Below, piece after piece: positions 9,436-26,602 of a stretch of DNA of 30,348 bases. The notes beneath the pieces are model-generated. The model had not been told where the DNA came from and ran no database searches. It saw only the letters and a program-made list of their open reading frames with translations. Numbering within the stretch: position 1 is the stretch's first letter; each line of letters opens with the position of its first letter. Source of the DNA: a virus (Duplodnaviria; Heunggongvirae; Uroviricota; Caudoviricetes); the IMG/VR virus record IMGVR_UViG_2568526312_000003. The stretch is one strand, 5' to 3'. A program made the position numbers and the translations under genes.

Positions 9436-9762
9436 ATGACTAAAAATACTCGTTTTTCCCCCGAAGTCCGTCAGCGGGCGATTCGTATGGTTCTGGAAAG
9501 TCAGGATGAATATGACTCACAGTGGGCGGCAATTTGTTCCATTGCCCCAAAGATTGGCTGTACGCCGGAGACTCTGCGTGTCTGGGTTCGCCAGCATGAG
9601 CGGGATACCGGGGGCGGTGATGGTGGGCTCACCAGCGCTGAACGTCAGCGTCTGAAAGAGCTGGAACGTGAAAATCGTGAACTGCGCCGCAGTAACGATA
9701 TCCTTCGCCAGGCTTCCGCTTATTTTGCGAAGGCGGAGTTCGACCGCCTCTGGAAAAAATGA
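9436..9762 (+). CDS. IS629 transposase OrfA (HTH)
   Basis: 108 aa [22 protein letters not shown]... matches IS629/IS3-family OrfA as recalled. Confidence 0.9.
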
Positions 9763-10649
9763 TGCCACTGCTGGATAAGCTGCGTGAGCAGTACGGGGTC
9801 GGACCGGTATGCAGCGAACTGCATATTGCCCCGTCAACGTATTACCATTGTCAGCAACAGCGACATCATCCGGATAAACGCAGTGCCCGTGCGCAGCACG
9901 ACGACTGGCTGAAGAGAGAGATACAGCGCGTATACGATGAAAATCATCAGGTGTACGGTGTGCGTAAAGTCTGGCGTCAGTTGTTACGGGAAGGAATCAG
10001 GGTGGCCAGATGTACAGTGGCACGTCTCATGGCGGTTATGGGACTTGCCGGTGTTCTCCGGGGTAAAAAGGTCCGTACGACCATCAGCCGGAAAGCCGTT
10101 GCCGCAGGCGACCGCGTAAACCGTCAGTTCGTGGCAGAACGACCTGACCAGCTGTGGGTGGCTGATTTTACTTACGTCAGCACATGGCAGGGCTTCGTCT
10201 ATGTGGCGTTTATCATTGATGTGTTTGCCGGATACATCGTGGGGTGGCGGGTCTCATCGTCTATGGAAACGACATTCGTGCTGGATGCGCTGGAGCAGGC
10301 GTTGTGGGCCCGTCGTCCGTCTGGCACCATCCATCACAGCGATAAAGGCTCTCAGTATGTGTCACTGGCCTATACGGAGCGACTAAAAGAAGCCGGATTA
10401 CTGGCATCAACAGGGAGTACAGGCGACTCGTATGACAACGCGATGGCTGAGAGCATCAATGGTCTTTACAAAGCGGAGGTAATACACCGTAAGAGCTGGA
10501 AAAACCGTGCAGAAGTGGAACTGGCCACACTAACGTGGGTGGACTGGTATAACAATCGACGATTGCTGGGAAGGCTGGGCCATACTCCTCCGGCAGAAGC
10601 AGAAAAAGCTTATTATGCTTCCATCGGAAACGATGATCTGGCAGCCTGA
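9759..10649 (+). CDS. IS629 transposase OrfB (DDE integrase core)
   Basis: 296 aa with the DDE region (WVADFTYV...HSDKGSQY...[15 protein letters not shown]); frameshift window ggaaaaaatga at 9752-9762. Confidence 0.9.
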
Positions 10650-12695: not shown

Positions 12696-12894
12696 AAATA
12701 AAGGGATAACGATGATAGTTTGAGAAAAACAGAAATAACACTTTTGTGGCAAAGCATGGTGCCGGGTGCCTCCCGGTGAATTCAGTATCAGCACCTGAAT
12801 CCGCGATTACCCCATATTCCTTCTTGCTGATTGCCCCACCGCACAGGGGGATTCACCATGCAGAAGTGTTTTTAATAAACAGCAAACAAAAAAA

Positions 12895-13660: not shown

Positions 13661-13737
13661 TGGTGCGTTGTACTGGGTTCGAACCAGTGACCGATTGCTT
13701 AGAAGGCAATTGCTCTGTCCGGCTGAGCTAAAAACGC
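13661..13737 (-). tRNA. tRNA-Arg (anticodon UCU)
   Basis: Cloverleaf on minus strand, anticodon loop CTTCTAA, T-arm GGTTCGAAC, 3' CCA encoded. Confidence 0.8.
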
Positions 13738-13750
13738 AGAATACCGATAA

Positions 13751-13829
13751 TGGACCGCCATCGGAGACTCGAACCCCGCGAAACCAGCTTCGAAGGCTGG
13801 CGTTCTATCCCGATGAGCTAATGGCGGTA
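13751..13829 (-). tRNA. tRNA-Arg (anticodon UCG)
   Basis: Anticodon stem CCAGC/GCTGG, loop CTTCGAA, T-arm GGTTCGAGT, CCA end; exact 5' end uncertain by 1-2 nt. Confidence 0.7.
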
Positions 13830-13834
13830 TGTGA

Positions 13835-13910
13835 TGGTGGCCCTTGCTGGATTTGAACCAGCGGCCTGGCGATTATGAGTCGCTCGCTCTCACCACTGAG
13901 CTAAAGGGCC
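13835..13910 (-). tRNA. tRNA with CAU anticodon (Ile2/Met, ileZ-like)
   Basis: GGCCCTTTAGCTCAGTGG...CTCATAA...GGTTCAAATCC...AAGGGCCACCA; 7-bp acceptor stem, anticodon CAT. Confidence 0.8.
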
Positions 13911-16675: not shown

Positions 16676-16831
16676 TTACTCCTCAGGTTCGTAAGCTGTG
16701 AAGACAGCGACCTCCGTCTGGCCGGTTCGGATTCGTACCTCGCAGAGGTCTTTCCTCGTTACCAGTGCCGTCACTATGACGGTTAAACAGATGACGATCA
16801 GGGCGATTAACATCGCCTTTTGCTGCTTCAT
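16676..16831 (-). CDS. hok: Hok/Gef family type I toxin (HokD/RelF-like), with in-frame Mok-like upstream extension to 16888
   Basis: MKQQKAMLIALIVICLTVIVTALVTRKDLCEVRIRTGQTEVAVFTAYEPEE; SD aggaga; 70-aa in-frame extension resembles Mok. Confidence 0.85.
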   Translation of the reverse strand: MKQQKAMLIALIVICLTVIVTALVTRKDLCEVRIRTGQTEVAVFTAYEPEE

Positions 16832-17074
16832 AACCTGCTTCTCCTTGCCTTTCGGCGCGTAAGAGGCTAACCTACGTTTGTGAAGCATAGATTGGGCCTC
16901 AGATTAATGTTAAGCGTCTTGCAGGACGCGTAATGTTAACTGGGGCTTTTCTCTGTCTGCCTTACGGTGGCATGCCCGAGGCAGACAGCCTCAAGCACCC
17001 GCAGCAATTCTACTTAACTCTCGCTTTACAGCAAACCGTTTTGCCCGATATGGGAATTCCCATACGGAATGAAT

Positions 17075-22090: not shown

Positions 22091-22106
22091 CAATTTGCAG
22101 GAGAAA

Positions 22107-22754
22107 ATGATGGAAAGCCTTGGCTTCAGGCTTAAGAGACTTAGAAAAGATAAGGGGCTGACCCAAGTAGAACTGGGTAAGCTTTCAGGCGTGACTGGGG
22201 TTACTATAGGGTACTGGGAGAAAGATCTAAACGAACCAGGTAGCAAAGCTCTAAGTAAGTTAGCCCAGGCATTAGGAACTACTGAGTCCTATCTCCTATA
22301 TGGAGTATCGTCTCCTGAATTATCTTTTGTACAAAGTACCTCAGGCACCAAGATCCCCTACCTTTCGTGGGGTGAGGCGATTTCTTTCCTAATCTTAAAA
22401 GGAGAGAAAACAATGGGAAATGTCGATAGAATCACCACATTCTTTGATGTCGAGGAAGGTGATTTTGCCGTTTCAATGCCTGATGACACAATGCATAACC
22501 CATCAGGATCACCGAGTATCCCAGTTGGTGCTACTGTGATCCTAAGGCCAGGAGAAAGTTATAAAAATGGCAGCATCGTCGCTGTAATAGTTCCGGATCC
22601 GCTTAAAAATGAACCATCTATGACTATAAAGAAATTAGTTATTGATGGGAAGCTTGTGTATTTAAGCCCTCTCAATCCACGCTATCAGTCATCCTTACTT
22701 ACACCAGAGTGTAAAATTGTTGCCGTAGCAAAAGGTGTACAGTTCAACTTATAA
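22107..22754 (+). CDS. cI: CI-like prophage repressor (HTH plus S24/LexA-like peptidase domain)
   Basis: N-terminal HTH (GLTQVELGKLSGVTGVTIGYWEK); C-terminal S24-like region (SMPDDTMHNP...GSIVAVIV...KKLVIDGKLVYLSPLNP). Confidence 0.8.
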   Translation: MMESLGFRLKRLRKDKGLTQVELGKLSGVTGVTIGYWEKDLNEPGSKALSKLAQALGTTESYLLYGVSSPELSFVQSTSGTKIPYLSWGEAISFLILKGEKTMGNVDRITTFFDVEEGDFAVSMPDDTMHNPSGSPSIPVGATVILRPGESYKNGSIVAVIVPDPLKNEPSMTIKKLVIDGKLVYLSPLNPRYQSSLLTPECKIVAVAKGVQFNL

Positions 22755-22805: not shown

Positions 22806-22850
22806 AATCTAGATTTACCTTGACTGAAAAACTAAATACTTTTAGATTTA
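22806..22850 (+). promoter_or_regulatory. PL promoter with OL operators
   Basis: TTGACT (22820-22825), 17-bp spacer, TAGATT (22843-22848); palindrome AATCTAGATT at 22806-22815 and TTTAGATTTA over the -10. Confidence 0.6.
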
Positions 22851-23444: not shown

Positions 23445-23483
23445 TTTCTGGTGATTCGGCGGAAATGGATATCCGCCCTTTTT
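23445..23483 (+). ncRNA. dicF: DicF-like small RNA (variant with shortened or divergent body)
   Basis: tttctggtga...ggcggaaatggatatccgccctttttaaagtgaattttgtgatg resembles the 5' end, terminator and downstream flank of E. coli dicF as recalled; lies just upstream of a dicB homolog. Confidence 0.5.
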
Positions 23484-23661
23484 AAAGTGAATTTTGTGAT
23501 GCGGTGAATGCGGCTATGCGCACGCGGAACAGTTAAAGCAGTAAGGCGGTCTTTTACTGGCGTAACGAGCATCAACTAACCCGACGTTAATTGTTAACTG
23601 GTTAACGTCACCTGGAGGCACCAGGCACTGCATCACAAAATTCATTGTTGAGGACGCGATA

Positions 23662-23850
23662 ATGGAAACGTTATTACCAAACGTTAATACGTCTGAAGGT
23701 TGTTTTGATATTGGTGTTCTGCTCAGTAATAAAGCGTTTACTGAGGATGCCATTAATATGCGGAAATATGAGCCTTATCTGCTCAATGATAATTCCATTC
23801 TTTCCCGAATTGCCCTTATTAAACTTGGTATTTTCGGAGAACGTCAATGA
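23662..23850 (+). CDS. dicB: DicB-like cell division inhibitor
   Basis: METLLPNVNTSEGCFDIGV...FTEDAIN matches the recalled DicB N-terminus; 62 aa. Confidence 0.7.
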   Translation: METLLPNVNTSEGCFDIGVLLSNKAFTEDAINMRKYEPYLLNDNSILSRIALIKLGIFGERQ

Positions 23851-24035
23851 CTTCAGCATTTGCACTGGTGATGACGGTTTTTCTTATAACGGGTGAATCA
23901 CAGAATGTTATTACCGGAATTTATGCCAGTAAAGAATCCTGCCTCCAGGCAAGAGACGAGCAAAAAATTTCTGGTGAATGCCTACCGGTAAAAAAAGTAT
24001 CGCTGTACCTGAATAACGAAACACCGGCTGGATAA
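23847..24035 (+). CDS. YdfD-like small protein (N-terminal hydrophobic segment)
   Basis: 62 aa, ATGA overlap with the dicB-like gene; MTSAFALVMTVFLITG hydrophobic start. Confidence 0.5.
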   Translation: MTSAFALVMTVFLITGESQNVITGIYASKESCLQARDEQKISGECLPVKKVSLYLNNETPAG

Positions 24036-24130: not shown

Positions 24131-26602
24131 ATGAGTAAAATCTTTATTTGCGCTGCTATTCCTGACGAACAGGCCATAAAAGAAGATAGCGCTGTTGCGG
24201 TGGCCACTGCCATTGAAGCCGGTGATGAGCGTCGCGCACGCGCAAAATTTCACTGGCAATTTCTGGAGCAATTCCCGGCAGCTCAGGACTGCGCTTATAA
24301 ATTTATTGTCTGCGAGGATAAACCCGGCATACCCCGCCCTGCCCTCGATTCCTGGGATACCGAATATATGCAGGAAAACCGCTGGGATGAGGAGTCAGCT
24401 TCCTTTGTACCGGTCGAACCAGAATCCGATCCGATGAACGTCAATTTTGACAAGCTGTCCCCTGAAGTACAGAACGCAGTCCTGGTTAAATTCGACACAT
24501 GCGAAAACATCACCGTTGATATGGTGATTAGCGCACAGGAATTACTACAGGAAGACATGGCAACATTCGGCGGACATATCGTTGAAGCGTTGATGAAAAT
24601 GCCAGAAGTTAACGCCATGTATCCTGAACTTAAACTGCATGCCATCGGGTGGGTTAAGCATAAATGTGAGCCTGGCGCTAAATGGCCTGAAATTCAGGCA
24701 GAGATGCGCATCTGGAAAAAACGTCGCGAAGGTGAACGCAAGGAAACCGGAAAATACACGTCTGTTGTTGATCTCGCCCGCGCCAGAGTCAACCAACAGA
24801 ACCCTGAAAACGCTGCTGAAAAAACCGGGGCTGTCACTGTTGCCATTCGCCGCGAATACAAACAGACATGGAAAACACTCGACAATGAACTGGCCTGCGC
24901 CCTCTGGCCCGGTGATGTGGATGCAGGAAACATTGACGGTACCATCCATCGCTGGGCGACAAATGAGGTTATCGACAAGGATCGCGAAGACTGGAAGCGT
25001 ATCTCAGCATCAATGCGCAAACAGCCCGAAGCACTTGGCTATGACCGTCAGACTATTTTTGGCCTTGTTCGCGAACGTCCGATCGATATTCACAAAGATC
25101 CCGTTGCACTGAACAAATATATCAGTGAATACCTGACGACAAAGGGCGTGTTTGAACATGAAGAAACAGACCAGAGCTCTACTGATGCTCTCCAGCCGTC
25201 AGCAGCACAAACTGCTCCAGTGGAGACGGCAGAATCCGATACTCAAAAAAATGAAATCCTGGTGGAAGCTGAACCATCTGTAGAGCGTGAAGGACCATTT
25301 TATTTCGTCTTTACCGATAAGGGCGGGGAAAAATACGGCAGGGCAAACAAACTTTCTGGTCTGGACAAGGCGCTGGCTGCCGGCGGTACCGAAATCTCAA
25401 AAGAAGAATATTTTGCCCGAAAAAATGGCACATACACGGGCTTACCGCAAAATGTGGATACCGCTGAAGATTCCGAACAATCAGAGCCGGTAAAAGTTAC
25501 CGCTGACGAAGTAAACAAAATTATGCAGGCAGCCAATATCAGCCAGCCTGACGCCGATAAATTGCTTGCTGCATCACGTGGTGAATTTGTTGAAGGGATT
25601 AGCGACCCGAATGATCCGAAATGGGTGAAAGGGATCCAGAGTCGCGACGCTGAGGACCAGAATCAGCCCAACGTGAAACAAAATGAGCCAGAAGCGGAAC
25701 AAAACAGCCCGGATACGCAACAAAACGGGCCAGAAGAACAACAACCAGAACCAGCAGTGCAACAGGAACTGGAAAAAGTTTGCACCGCATGCGGTCAGAC
25801 CGGTGGCGGCAACTGTCCTGACTGTGGTGCGGTGATGGGGAACGCAACCTACCTGGAAACATTCGATGAAGAGAATCAGGCTGAAGCTCAGAAAAATGAT
25901 CCGGAGGAAATGGAAGGCACTGAACATCTGCACAAGGAGAACACTGGCAGCGATCAGTATCACGCCAGCGATAATAAAACTGGCGAAACAGCAAATCCCT
26001 TAATTAAAGTGAACGGTCATCATGAAATCTCATCCACCAGCAGGTTGTGGCACCATCTGATGATTGACCTTGAAACAATGGGAAAAAATCCTGATGCGCC
26101 AATAAACTCTATAGCCGGTAAGTTTTTTGATCCGGCAACCGGAGAGATGGGGCCAGAATTCAGCAAAACTATCGATCTGGAAACCGCAGGTGGGGTCATC
26201 GATCGGGACACCATTAAGTGGTGGCTGAAACAGTCACGCGAAGCACAATCCTCCATTCTGACCGATGAAATCACGTTGGATGATGCACTGCTGCAATTCC
26301 GGGAATTTATCGACGAAAACTCCGGTGAATTTTTTGTTCAGGTCTGGGGTAACGGTGCAACTTTCGACAACGTGATTTTACGCCGTTCATATGAACGGCA
26401 GGGGATCCCCTGCCCGTGGCGTTACACCAATGATCGCGATGTAAGAACGATGGTTGCTCTGGGACTGGTGATGGATTTCGACGCAAGAACGACTATTCCA
26501 TTCGAAGGTGAACGCCATAACGCCCTGCACGATGCGCGTTACCAGGCAAAATACGTTTCAGCCATCTGGCAAAAACTGCTCCCGAGTCAGGCTGATTTTT
26601 AA
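24131..26602 (+). CDS. large RecE-like (exonuclease VIII family) protein with C-terminal DEDDh 3'-5' exonuclease domain
   Basis: Central segment KLLAASRGEFVEGISDPNDPKWVKGIQSRD...CTACGQTGGGNCPDCGAVMG resembles the RecE middle region (memory); C-terminus has DnaQ-like motifs MIDLETMG, VWGNGATFDNV, HNALHDARYQA. Confidence 0.6.
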   Translation: MSKIFICAAIPDEQAIKEDSAVAVATAIEAGDERRARAKFHWQFLEQFPAAQDCAYKFIVCEDKPGIPRPALDSWDTEYMQENRWDEESASFVPVEPESDPMNVNFDKLSPEVQNAVLVKFDTCENITVDMVISAQELLQEDMATFGGHIVEALMKMPEVNAMYPELKLHAIGWVKHKCEPGAKWPEIQAEMRIWKKRREGERKETGKYTSVVDLARARVNQQNPENAAEKTGAVTVAIRREYKQTWKTLDNELACALWPGDVDAGNIDGTIHRWATNEVIDKDREDWKRISASMRKQPEALGYDRQTIFGLVRERPIDIHKDPVALNKYISEYLTTKGVFEHEETDQSSTDALQPSAAQTAPVETAESDTQKNEILVEAEPSVEREGPFYFVFTDKGGEKYGRANKLSGLDKALAAGGTEISKEEYFARKNGTYTGLPQNVDTAEDSEQSEPVKVTADEVNKIMQAANISQPDADKLLAASRGEFVEGISDPNDPKWVKGIQSRDAEDQNQPNVKQNEPEAEQNSPDTQQNGPEEQQPEPAVQQELEKVCTACGQTGGGNCPDCGAVMGNATYLETFDEENQAEAQKNDPEEMEGTEHLHKENTGSDQYHASDNKTGETANPLIKVNGHHEISSTSRLWHHLMIDLETMGKNPDAPINSIAGKFFDPATGEMGPEFSKTIDLETAGGVIDRDTIKWWLKQSREAQSSILTDEITLDDALLQFREFIDENSGEFFVQVWGNGATFDNVILRRSYERQGIPCPWRYTNDRDVRTMVALGLVMDFDARTTIPFEGERHNALHDARYQAKYVSAIWQKLLPSQADF

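Follow-up and report, generated by a model that had tools for sequence, protein, structure and literature searches.

A RecE/YdfE-type scaffold with a DEDDh 3'-5' exonuclease head in the early-left operon of a lambdoid prophage of Escherichia coli O157:H7

Introduction

The DNA described here is IMG/VR virus record IMGVR_UViG_2568526312_000003 (Caudoviricetes), a stretch of 30,348 nucleotides referred to below as the window, and its subject is the complete exonuclease gene at 24131–26602 (+ strand), which encodes an 823-residue protein composed of a RecE/YdfE scaffold and a DEDDh 3'-5' exonuclease head and corresponds to RefSeq WP_000034457.1 ('exonuclease'). The gene is an ordinary, intact copy of a widespread gene of the lambdoid-phage early-left operon and is already a known object; its locus belongs to the catalogued Tritos-type module, which comprises a nuclease only. 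Five features of the system are observed directly: its domain composition, its position, the conservation of its catalytic residues, the absence of an annealase or anti-RecBCD gene, and the abundance of correctly oriented Chi sites. We favor the view, which we give about an even chance of being right, that the protein trims the 3' ends of DNA during lytic growth, its nuclease being brought to DNA ends by the RecE-type scaffold, in phages that rely on the host RecBCD-Chi-RecA pathway.

In the current report, we describe the architecture of this exonuclease, its relationship to RecE and to other DEDDh nucleases, and the association of its head with particular locus types. The competing explanations of its function are weighed together with the evidence that bears on each.

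Domain architecture and conservation

The open reading frame at 24131–26602 begins with ATG and is preceded by a GAGG Shine-Dalgarno sequence approximately 11 nt 5' of the start. Four consecutive segments can be distinguished in its product: a YdfE-type N-terminal module (residues 1–260; 24131–24910, +), which is the alternative to the PF06630 N-domain of RecE; a middle module (residues 261–460; 24911–25510, +) common to RecE 200–450; an acidic, Q/E/P-rich linker (residues 461–640; 25511–26050, +) that is close to RecE 447–591; and the DEDDh 3'-5' exonuclease domain itself (residues 641–823; 26051–26599, +). The linker reaches a Q/E/P content of 0.30–0.47 over residues 481–600, a stretch that is also acidic, and it contains the sequence motif of a CxxC-x7-CxxC zinc ribbon (C551, C554, C562, and C565; 25781–25825, +), which reads CTACG...CPDCG at residues 551–566.

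A Pfam-A scan of the whole protein returned one family only, PF16473 (Rv2179c-like 3'-5' exonuclease), at residues 641–813, with an E-value of 3.6e-62 and a score of 209.6 bits against a gathering cut-off of 27; all 177 profile positions (1–177) were covered. In the same scan, neither the PD-(D/E)XK nuclease domain of RecE (PF12684, at about RecE 600–866) nor its N-domain (PF06630) was detected, whereas RecE itself matches PF12684 in a scan of this type. The initial annotation, which had proposed a DnaQ-type C-terminus in place of the PD-(D/E)XK nuclease, is thereby confirmed. The motifs on which it drew lie at residues 646–651 (DLETMG), 740–746 (GNGATFD), and 796–806 (HNALHDARYQA), and the full catalytic set consists of D646, E648, D746, H796, and D801, with H-x4-D spacing. 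Among 128 aligned homologues, these catalytic residues are kept in 126–128 and the zinc-ribbon cysteines in 122–124.

Two further families, YdfE_N (PF27430) and YdfE_C (PF27432), match the identical protein and all close homologues according to precomputed Pfam assignments, including those on the identical RefSeq entry. An AlphaFold2 model of residues 1–460, built from 47 sequences (mean predicted local distance difference test score 76), divides the N-terminal module into an alpha/beta unit (residues 1–100) and a helical unit (105–205), and the middle module into a second helical unit (245–340), a disordered linker (344–384), and a small beta-beta-alpha-beta unit (388–432). This last unit, which K-12 RecE lacks, bears the family's most strongly conserved motif, a near-invariant GPFY...RANK...EIS.EEY.

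Comparison with RecE

The central region of the protein is homologous to RecE. In a BLASTP comparison with Rac RecE of MG1655, residues 262–625 aligned with RecE 278–591 at 38% identity (E 4e-59), which bears out the earlier recognition of a RecE-like center with an acidic Q/E/P linker and a CxxC...CxxC zinc ribbon. Residues ~465–625, which include the CxxC..CxxC motif, are mostly identical to Rac RecE when the alignment is judged by eye, and at the DNA level the gene matches recE at 76% over 450 nt (nucleotides 1425–1874; blastn). The region shared by the two proteins is the part of RecE that has no known function, and full-length RecE merely enhances linear-linear recombination (PMC11611040).

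This kinship, together with the label carried by Tritos, PhiR42_1, and other phage records, is what would favor regarding the protein as exonuclease VIII (RecE), a 5'-3' recombination exonuclease. The equivalog profile for exonuclease VIII (NCBIfam NF007259) does match in part, its best stretch pairing residues 453–625 with profile positions 446–602, but the score of 260.1 bits lies far below the cut-off of 1269 bits. The identification also fails on the nuclease domain: beyond the absence of PF12684, a tblastn search with RecE 591–866 gave no match within the window. It fails again on the N-terminus, which is of the YdfE type here and of the PF06630 type in Rac RecE, and on the partner, since Rac RecE is accompanied by RecT and the present exonuclease is not. 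We therefore rejected exonuclease VIII as the identity of this protein, an assignment that is now scarcely credible. The label 'exonuclease VIII' is wrong for the family because the head is a DEDDh nuclease of the opposite polarity (3'-5' rather than 5'-3') and RecT is absent. The gene occupies the position of recE-recT in Rac.

Head type, RecT/Bet, and Chi sites across loci

The association between the head and its surroundings was examined in 80 IMG/VR loci for each head type, with RecT or Bet sought within 6 kb. RecT or Bet was found in none of the 80 loci with a DEDDh head and in all 80 of those with the PD-(D/E)XK head of RecE, a result that supports the initial proposal that the system is not a two-component recombinase of the RecET type. 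A few related lineages make up most of both sets, meaning that the contrasts are strong without being independent; they agree with the survey by Zheng et al. discussed below. Downstream of the nuclease gene, int or xis plus int follows in 75 of the 80 DEDDh-head loci, and nothing recognizable was found there in the other five. DicB is encoded 5' of the exonuclease in 70 of the 80, most of the remaining ten loci being truncated on that side. An N-module of the RecE type is present in 27 or 28 of the 80 DEDDh-head loci. One PD-(D/E)XK locus has a YdfE-type N-module, and it is therefore the head, not the N-module, that tracks RecT.

Chi sites divide the two groups just as clearly. In the DEDDh-head loci, 234 Chi sites lie opposite the gene strand in 656 kb (3.57 per 10 kb) and six on the gene strand, compared with 24 opposite the gene strand in 739 kb (0.32 per 10 kb) and two on the gene strand in the loci with the RecE PD-(D/E)XK head, i.e., the density is about 11 times greater with the DEDDh head. 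The window itself contains eight copies of Chi (GCTGGTGG), at positions 3357, 7500, 8085, 13990, 15538, 21522, 26034, and 26723, against an expectation of 1.46, and none of 100 shuffled sequences reached eight. Seven of the eight are on the - strand, which corresponds to the lambda top strand and is the orientation active for RecBCD entering at cos. One of the sites (26034–26041) falls within the exonuclease gene.

The initial annotation had also noted that no recT or bet partner follows the gene and that xis and int come directly after it, and this proved correct. No match was obtained in the window by tblastn with Rac RecT or with lambda Bet, Exo, and Gam; the RefSeq annotation of a near-identical prophage copy lists no annealase, single-strand-binding protein (SSB), or anti-RecBCD gene; and a PHROG scan of ten poorly annotated small genes of that RefSeq copy revealed no annealase.

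Prevalence and known relatives

The window protein is 100% identical to WP_000034457.1, and many E. coli O157:H7 chromosomes carry a copy of the gene that is 100% identical. Of 5426 complete E. coli genomes, 3526 (about two thirds) contain homologous DNA that spans 80% or more of the gene, and a single genome can have as many as 10 matching places, counted irrespective of their length. The identical protein is recorded in 1147 blocks of the assembly collection and sits in two or more prophage contexts. It matches phrog_2082 from end to end (1–823 of 823 positions). In NCBI, the relatives go by 'exonuclease' or '3'-5' exoribonuclease'. At least 80% of the gene is also present in sixteen phage records, and in Tritos, HannyBb, PhiR42_1, and mEp460_ev081 it is intact at 86–87% nucleotide identity, under labels that vary among 'exonuclease VIII', 'exonuclease', and 'exodeoxyribonuclease'. 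What the initial annotation described as a chimera is accordingly a standard annotated architecture (WP_000034457.1, phrog_2082; YdfE_N + YdfE_C + Rv2179c-like) that is often labelled, wrongly, 'exonuclease VIII'. Of the two findings that would have spoken against that annotation, a PD-(D/E)XK fold at the C-terminus did not materialize, while a standard architecture of related prophages turned out to be largely the case.

The closest described counterpart is TRITO_27 of phage Tritos, which shares 87% nucleotide identity across the full 2472 nt and the gene order dicF-dicB-ydfD-exo-xis-int. Tritos and the window are alike in lacking an annealase, an SSB, and an anti-RecBCD gene and in having many Chi sites in the active orientation; they differ in that the window copy belongs to an O157:H7 prophage broken by insertion sequence (IS) elements. 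In a survey of 314 lambdoid phages, genes for DnaQ-type nucleases were reported to adjoin int sporadically, and Table 1 lists a 'Tritos' type that has a nuclease but no annealase, SSB, or anti-RecBCD function and comprises four phages, all of them Chi-rich (Zheng et al., Genome Res 2025, PMC12315714). The same authors propose that Chi-rich phages without anti-RecBCD functions depend on RecBCD for recombination-dependent growth, and the main text does not describe the chimera of a RecE scaffold and a DnaQ head (PMC12315714). In the literature, no experimental or functional study of this exonuclease was found.

A degraded relative is present in the laboratory strain. K-12 YdfE, encoded by the Qin pseudogene b1577, is 89% identical to residues 1–255 of the exonuclease and occupies the same place after dicB-ydfD, but IS2 cuts it short, and neither the linker nor the nuclease head is present; judged by sequence comparison, the pseudogene ydfE is a truncated N-terminus of the exonuclease gene. 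That precedent, along with the IS insertions of the window prophage (including ISEc8 in int), raises the question of whether the window copy is itself a decaying, functionless relic in a defective prophage. The intact reading frame and the conservation of catalytic and zinc-binding residues across the 128 homologues led us to reject a dead relic, and the occurrence of the gene in sequenced phage genomes and of the identical protein in so many assembly blocks points the same way, leaving this explanation highly improbable.

Relatives of the DEDDh head

T4 DexA (PDB 8KEL) is the only solved structure that can be reached from the head by sequence, with an E-value of 1e-6 for the single protein as the query and 2.4e-11 for a DEDDh-head profile. 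The two share the catalytic residues and the Pfam family, in which the DexA segment scores 79 bits, although their similarity is distant (30–46 bits). Mycobacterium tuberculosis Rv2179c, the founder of PF16473, did not come up when solved structures were searched directly. Since DexA, a DNase, falls within the family of the RNase Rv2179c, the family includes both a DNase and an RNase. All of these relatives differ from the window protein in organization: DexA (227 residues) and EcD, a homologue of it from E. coli, stand alone according to their descriptions, and Rv2179c is a stand-alone bacterial RNase, whereas here a head spanning the full family profile forms the C-terminal quarter of 823 residues.

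T4 DexA scavenges host DNA, and EcD ('HREX') is reported to cut DNA containing 5-hydroxymethylcytosine (5hmC) and to protect against T4, an effect seen even at leaky expression (Kang et al., NAR 2025, PMC12153337). By analogy, the window protein could be a prophage defense enzyme of the HREX/EcD kind, i.e., an exonuclease like DexA that attacks the hydroxymethylcytosine DNA of incoming T-even phages but leaves host DNA intact. In addition to the EcD precedent and the shared family, one of the two positions tied to 5hmC recognition agrees with this idea, as DexA D169 aligns with D782; at the other, DexA W152 aligns with T766, although a tryptophan, W763, is present three residues upstream. The tetramer residue D90 of DexA, which is Ala in EcD, aligns in phmmer with D718 and is thus retained, a comparison that is alignment-dependent and that takes EcD from its published description; among relatives, this position is Asp in 60 and Val in 68. 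The positions tied to tetramer formation and 5hmC recognition in fact all vary among the 128 homologues, including close relatives (D718/V, T766/Y, and D782/G). The genomic setting also argues against a defensive role, in that the gene lies in a repressed early-left operon without a promoter-like site of its own and is kept at the recE position in sequenced phage genomes, and PADLOC gave no significant match. On balance, we regard defense of the HREX kind as unlikely.

The same alignments show two apparent variants of the head in E. coli when the window protein is set against homologues P0121–P0240: D718/T766/D782, as in the window copy, and a commoner V/Y/G combination, the positions having been tallied singly. 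The two variants could differ in substrate preference.

A modular family of N-modules and heads

A full HMMER search with residues 1–640, the non-catalytic part of the protein, against 1.84 billion representative proteins yielded only 248 matches at E ≤ 0.001; a homologue search with residues 1–260 returned Escherichia fragments only. Local BLAST with domain probes resolved the family into a combinatorial mosaic in which the N-module is either of the YdfE type or of the PF06630 type of RecE, the middle module and the zinc-ribbon linker are shared, and the C-terminal heads vary. All four combinations of the two N-modules with the DEDDh and PD-(D/E)XK heads were found. For example, protein P0248 consists of residues 1–450 of Rac RecE (94–100% identical) fused to a DEDDh head with 88% identity to that of the window protein.

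A Rad52-like head occupies the same scaffold in Enterobacter relatives. The head of one such protein, P0387, had no match in a phmmer search against PDB sequences, and in Pfam it gave a sub-threshold match to Rad52_Rad22 only (E 0.028). A Pfam scan of ten scaffold relatives with unassigned C-termini identified no families. Separately, P0244 of Enterobacter roggenkampii (702 residues) bears a fourth C-terminal type that is unlike the other three heads and matches phrog_26058 (function unknown); its C-terminal region had no match in a Pfam scan.

The three alternative heads, namely PD-(D/E)XK, DEDDh, and the Rad52-like annealase fold, all represent DNA-recombination functions. This bears on the notion that the protein is an exoribonuclease acting on RNA 3' ends, for instance to process or degrade the dicF-dicB operon transcripts or RNAs of the host. 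The family name, taken from an M. tuberculosis RNase, the NCBI designation '3'-5' exoribonuclease', and the co-transcription of the gene with the dicF small RNA (sRNA) locus in related phages all lean towards RNA, but the sole solved relative found by sequence is the DNase DexA, and on this scaffold the head takes a place otherwise filled by an exonuclease or an annealase that acts on DNA. An exoribonuclease function is accordingly quite improbable, somewhat more so than the defensive one.

A broader and more speculative proposal can be made from the mosaic. The RecE/YdfE scaffold may serve lambdoid phages as a general vehicle for interchangeable recombination heads, i.e., a PD-(D/E)XK 5'-3' nuclease, a Rad52-like annealase, or a DEDDh 3'-5' nuclease, with the DEDDh version constituting a distinct phage strategy that dispenses with an annealase and uses a tethered exonuclease to prepare ends for host RecBCD acting at the many Chi sites of the phage or, alternatively, serves in counter-defense. 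We put this forward tentatively and consider it rather doubtful as a whole.

Gene neighborhood and expression context

The exonuclease gene lies in a leftward operon behind dicB (23662–23850, +) and a ydfD-like DUF1482 gene (23847–24035, +). At the head of the leftward region is a gene for a CI/LexA-family repressor (22095–22754, +), and a weak promoter-like site at 22820–22848 is a candidate pL; no sigma-70-like promoter site was found on the + strand between 23000 and 26600. The position of the exonuclease gene 3' of the CI-like repressor gene and on the same strand fits transcription from pL in lytic growth, but does not prove it. A DUF4224 xis-like gene (26661–26864, +) begins 58 nt past the exonuclease stop codon and is followed by the 5' part of a tyrosine integrase gene (26864–27378, +), the 3' part of which resumes at 29821 and leaves the window.

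The early-operon position, which is typical of takeover and anti-defense genes, the scavenging of host DNA by T4 DexA, and the absence of an annealase partner could together be taken to indicate an offensive or anti-defense nuclease that degrades host or competitor DNA, or the nucleic acids of immunity systems (retron msDNA or linear oligonucleotide signals), during lytic growth. The initial annotation had raised such an anti-defense role, for which we obtained no support: no homology to known anti-defense proteins was found, and PADLOC gave a non-significant, generic exonuclease match (E 0.03). The scaffold, being common to RecE and to the Rad52-like annealase fusion, points instead to recombination, and temperate lambdoid phages are not known as degraders of host DNA. 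We judge this possibility to be as improbable as defense of the HREX kind. The other role named in the initial annotation, nucleic-acid processing, is plausible.

Several additional features of the locus were recorded. The integrase gene is interrupted by a complete ISEc8 (27379–29820; IS66 family, 2442 bp), with tnpA, tnpB, and the transposase gene on the - strand. A clean 8-bp target duplication (TACCAGGC) borders the element at 27371–27378 and 29821–29828; because int is split, the prophage should be unable to excise by itself. In other O157:H7 strains, the same int gene contains IS1203, or merely a frameshift, instead of ISEc8. The dicF sRNA locus (~23455–23500), 5' of dicB, is a shortened variant that keeps the 5' seed TTTCTGGTGA, followed directly by the short terminator hairpin GGCGGAAATGGATATCCGCC and a T run; its flanks agree with those of Tritos and K-12, and DicF was not detected in the window by Rfam at the gathering threshold. 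Rfam did identify the sok antitoxin RNA adjoining hokD (16826–17000, -), the sRNA STnc100 (12718–12890, -), three tRNA genes (13664–13910, -), and the ALIL frameshift pseudoknot of an IS1203 copy (9717–9833, +). The three tRNA genes, which lie upstream of the late region, are those for Arg, Arg, and Ile in the RefSeq copy.

Proposed role and implications

The 3'-end-trimming role that we favor can be laid out as a series of steps. The exonuclease would probably be transcribed from pL in lytic growth, and its non-catalytic scaffold would probably bring the head to the DNA substrate or partner of RecE, namely DNA ends. There, the Mg-dependent DEDDh head, as a member of the Rv2179c/T4-DexA family, would probably trim DNA 3' ends, for example by removing 3' tails to leave blunt ends on which RecBCD can load. 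Lacking an annealase, the phage would depend on the host RecBCD-Chi-RecA pathway for strand exchange, which would make the nuclease an accessory enzyme of end processing and not one half of a two-component recombinase.

As an object, the protein changes nothing, since it is already present in RefSeq, PHROGs, and Pfam, and its module type has been described in the literature. What matters is that 'exonuclease VIII', a label often given to the DEDDh-head family, is wrong, and that the gene is among the commonest of E. coli prophages, often in several copies per genome. The strict link between head type, RecT, and Chi density offers a concrete route to testing its function in phages such as Tritos or mEp460.

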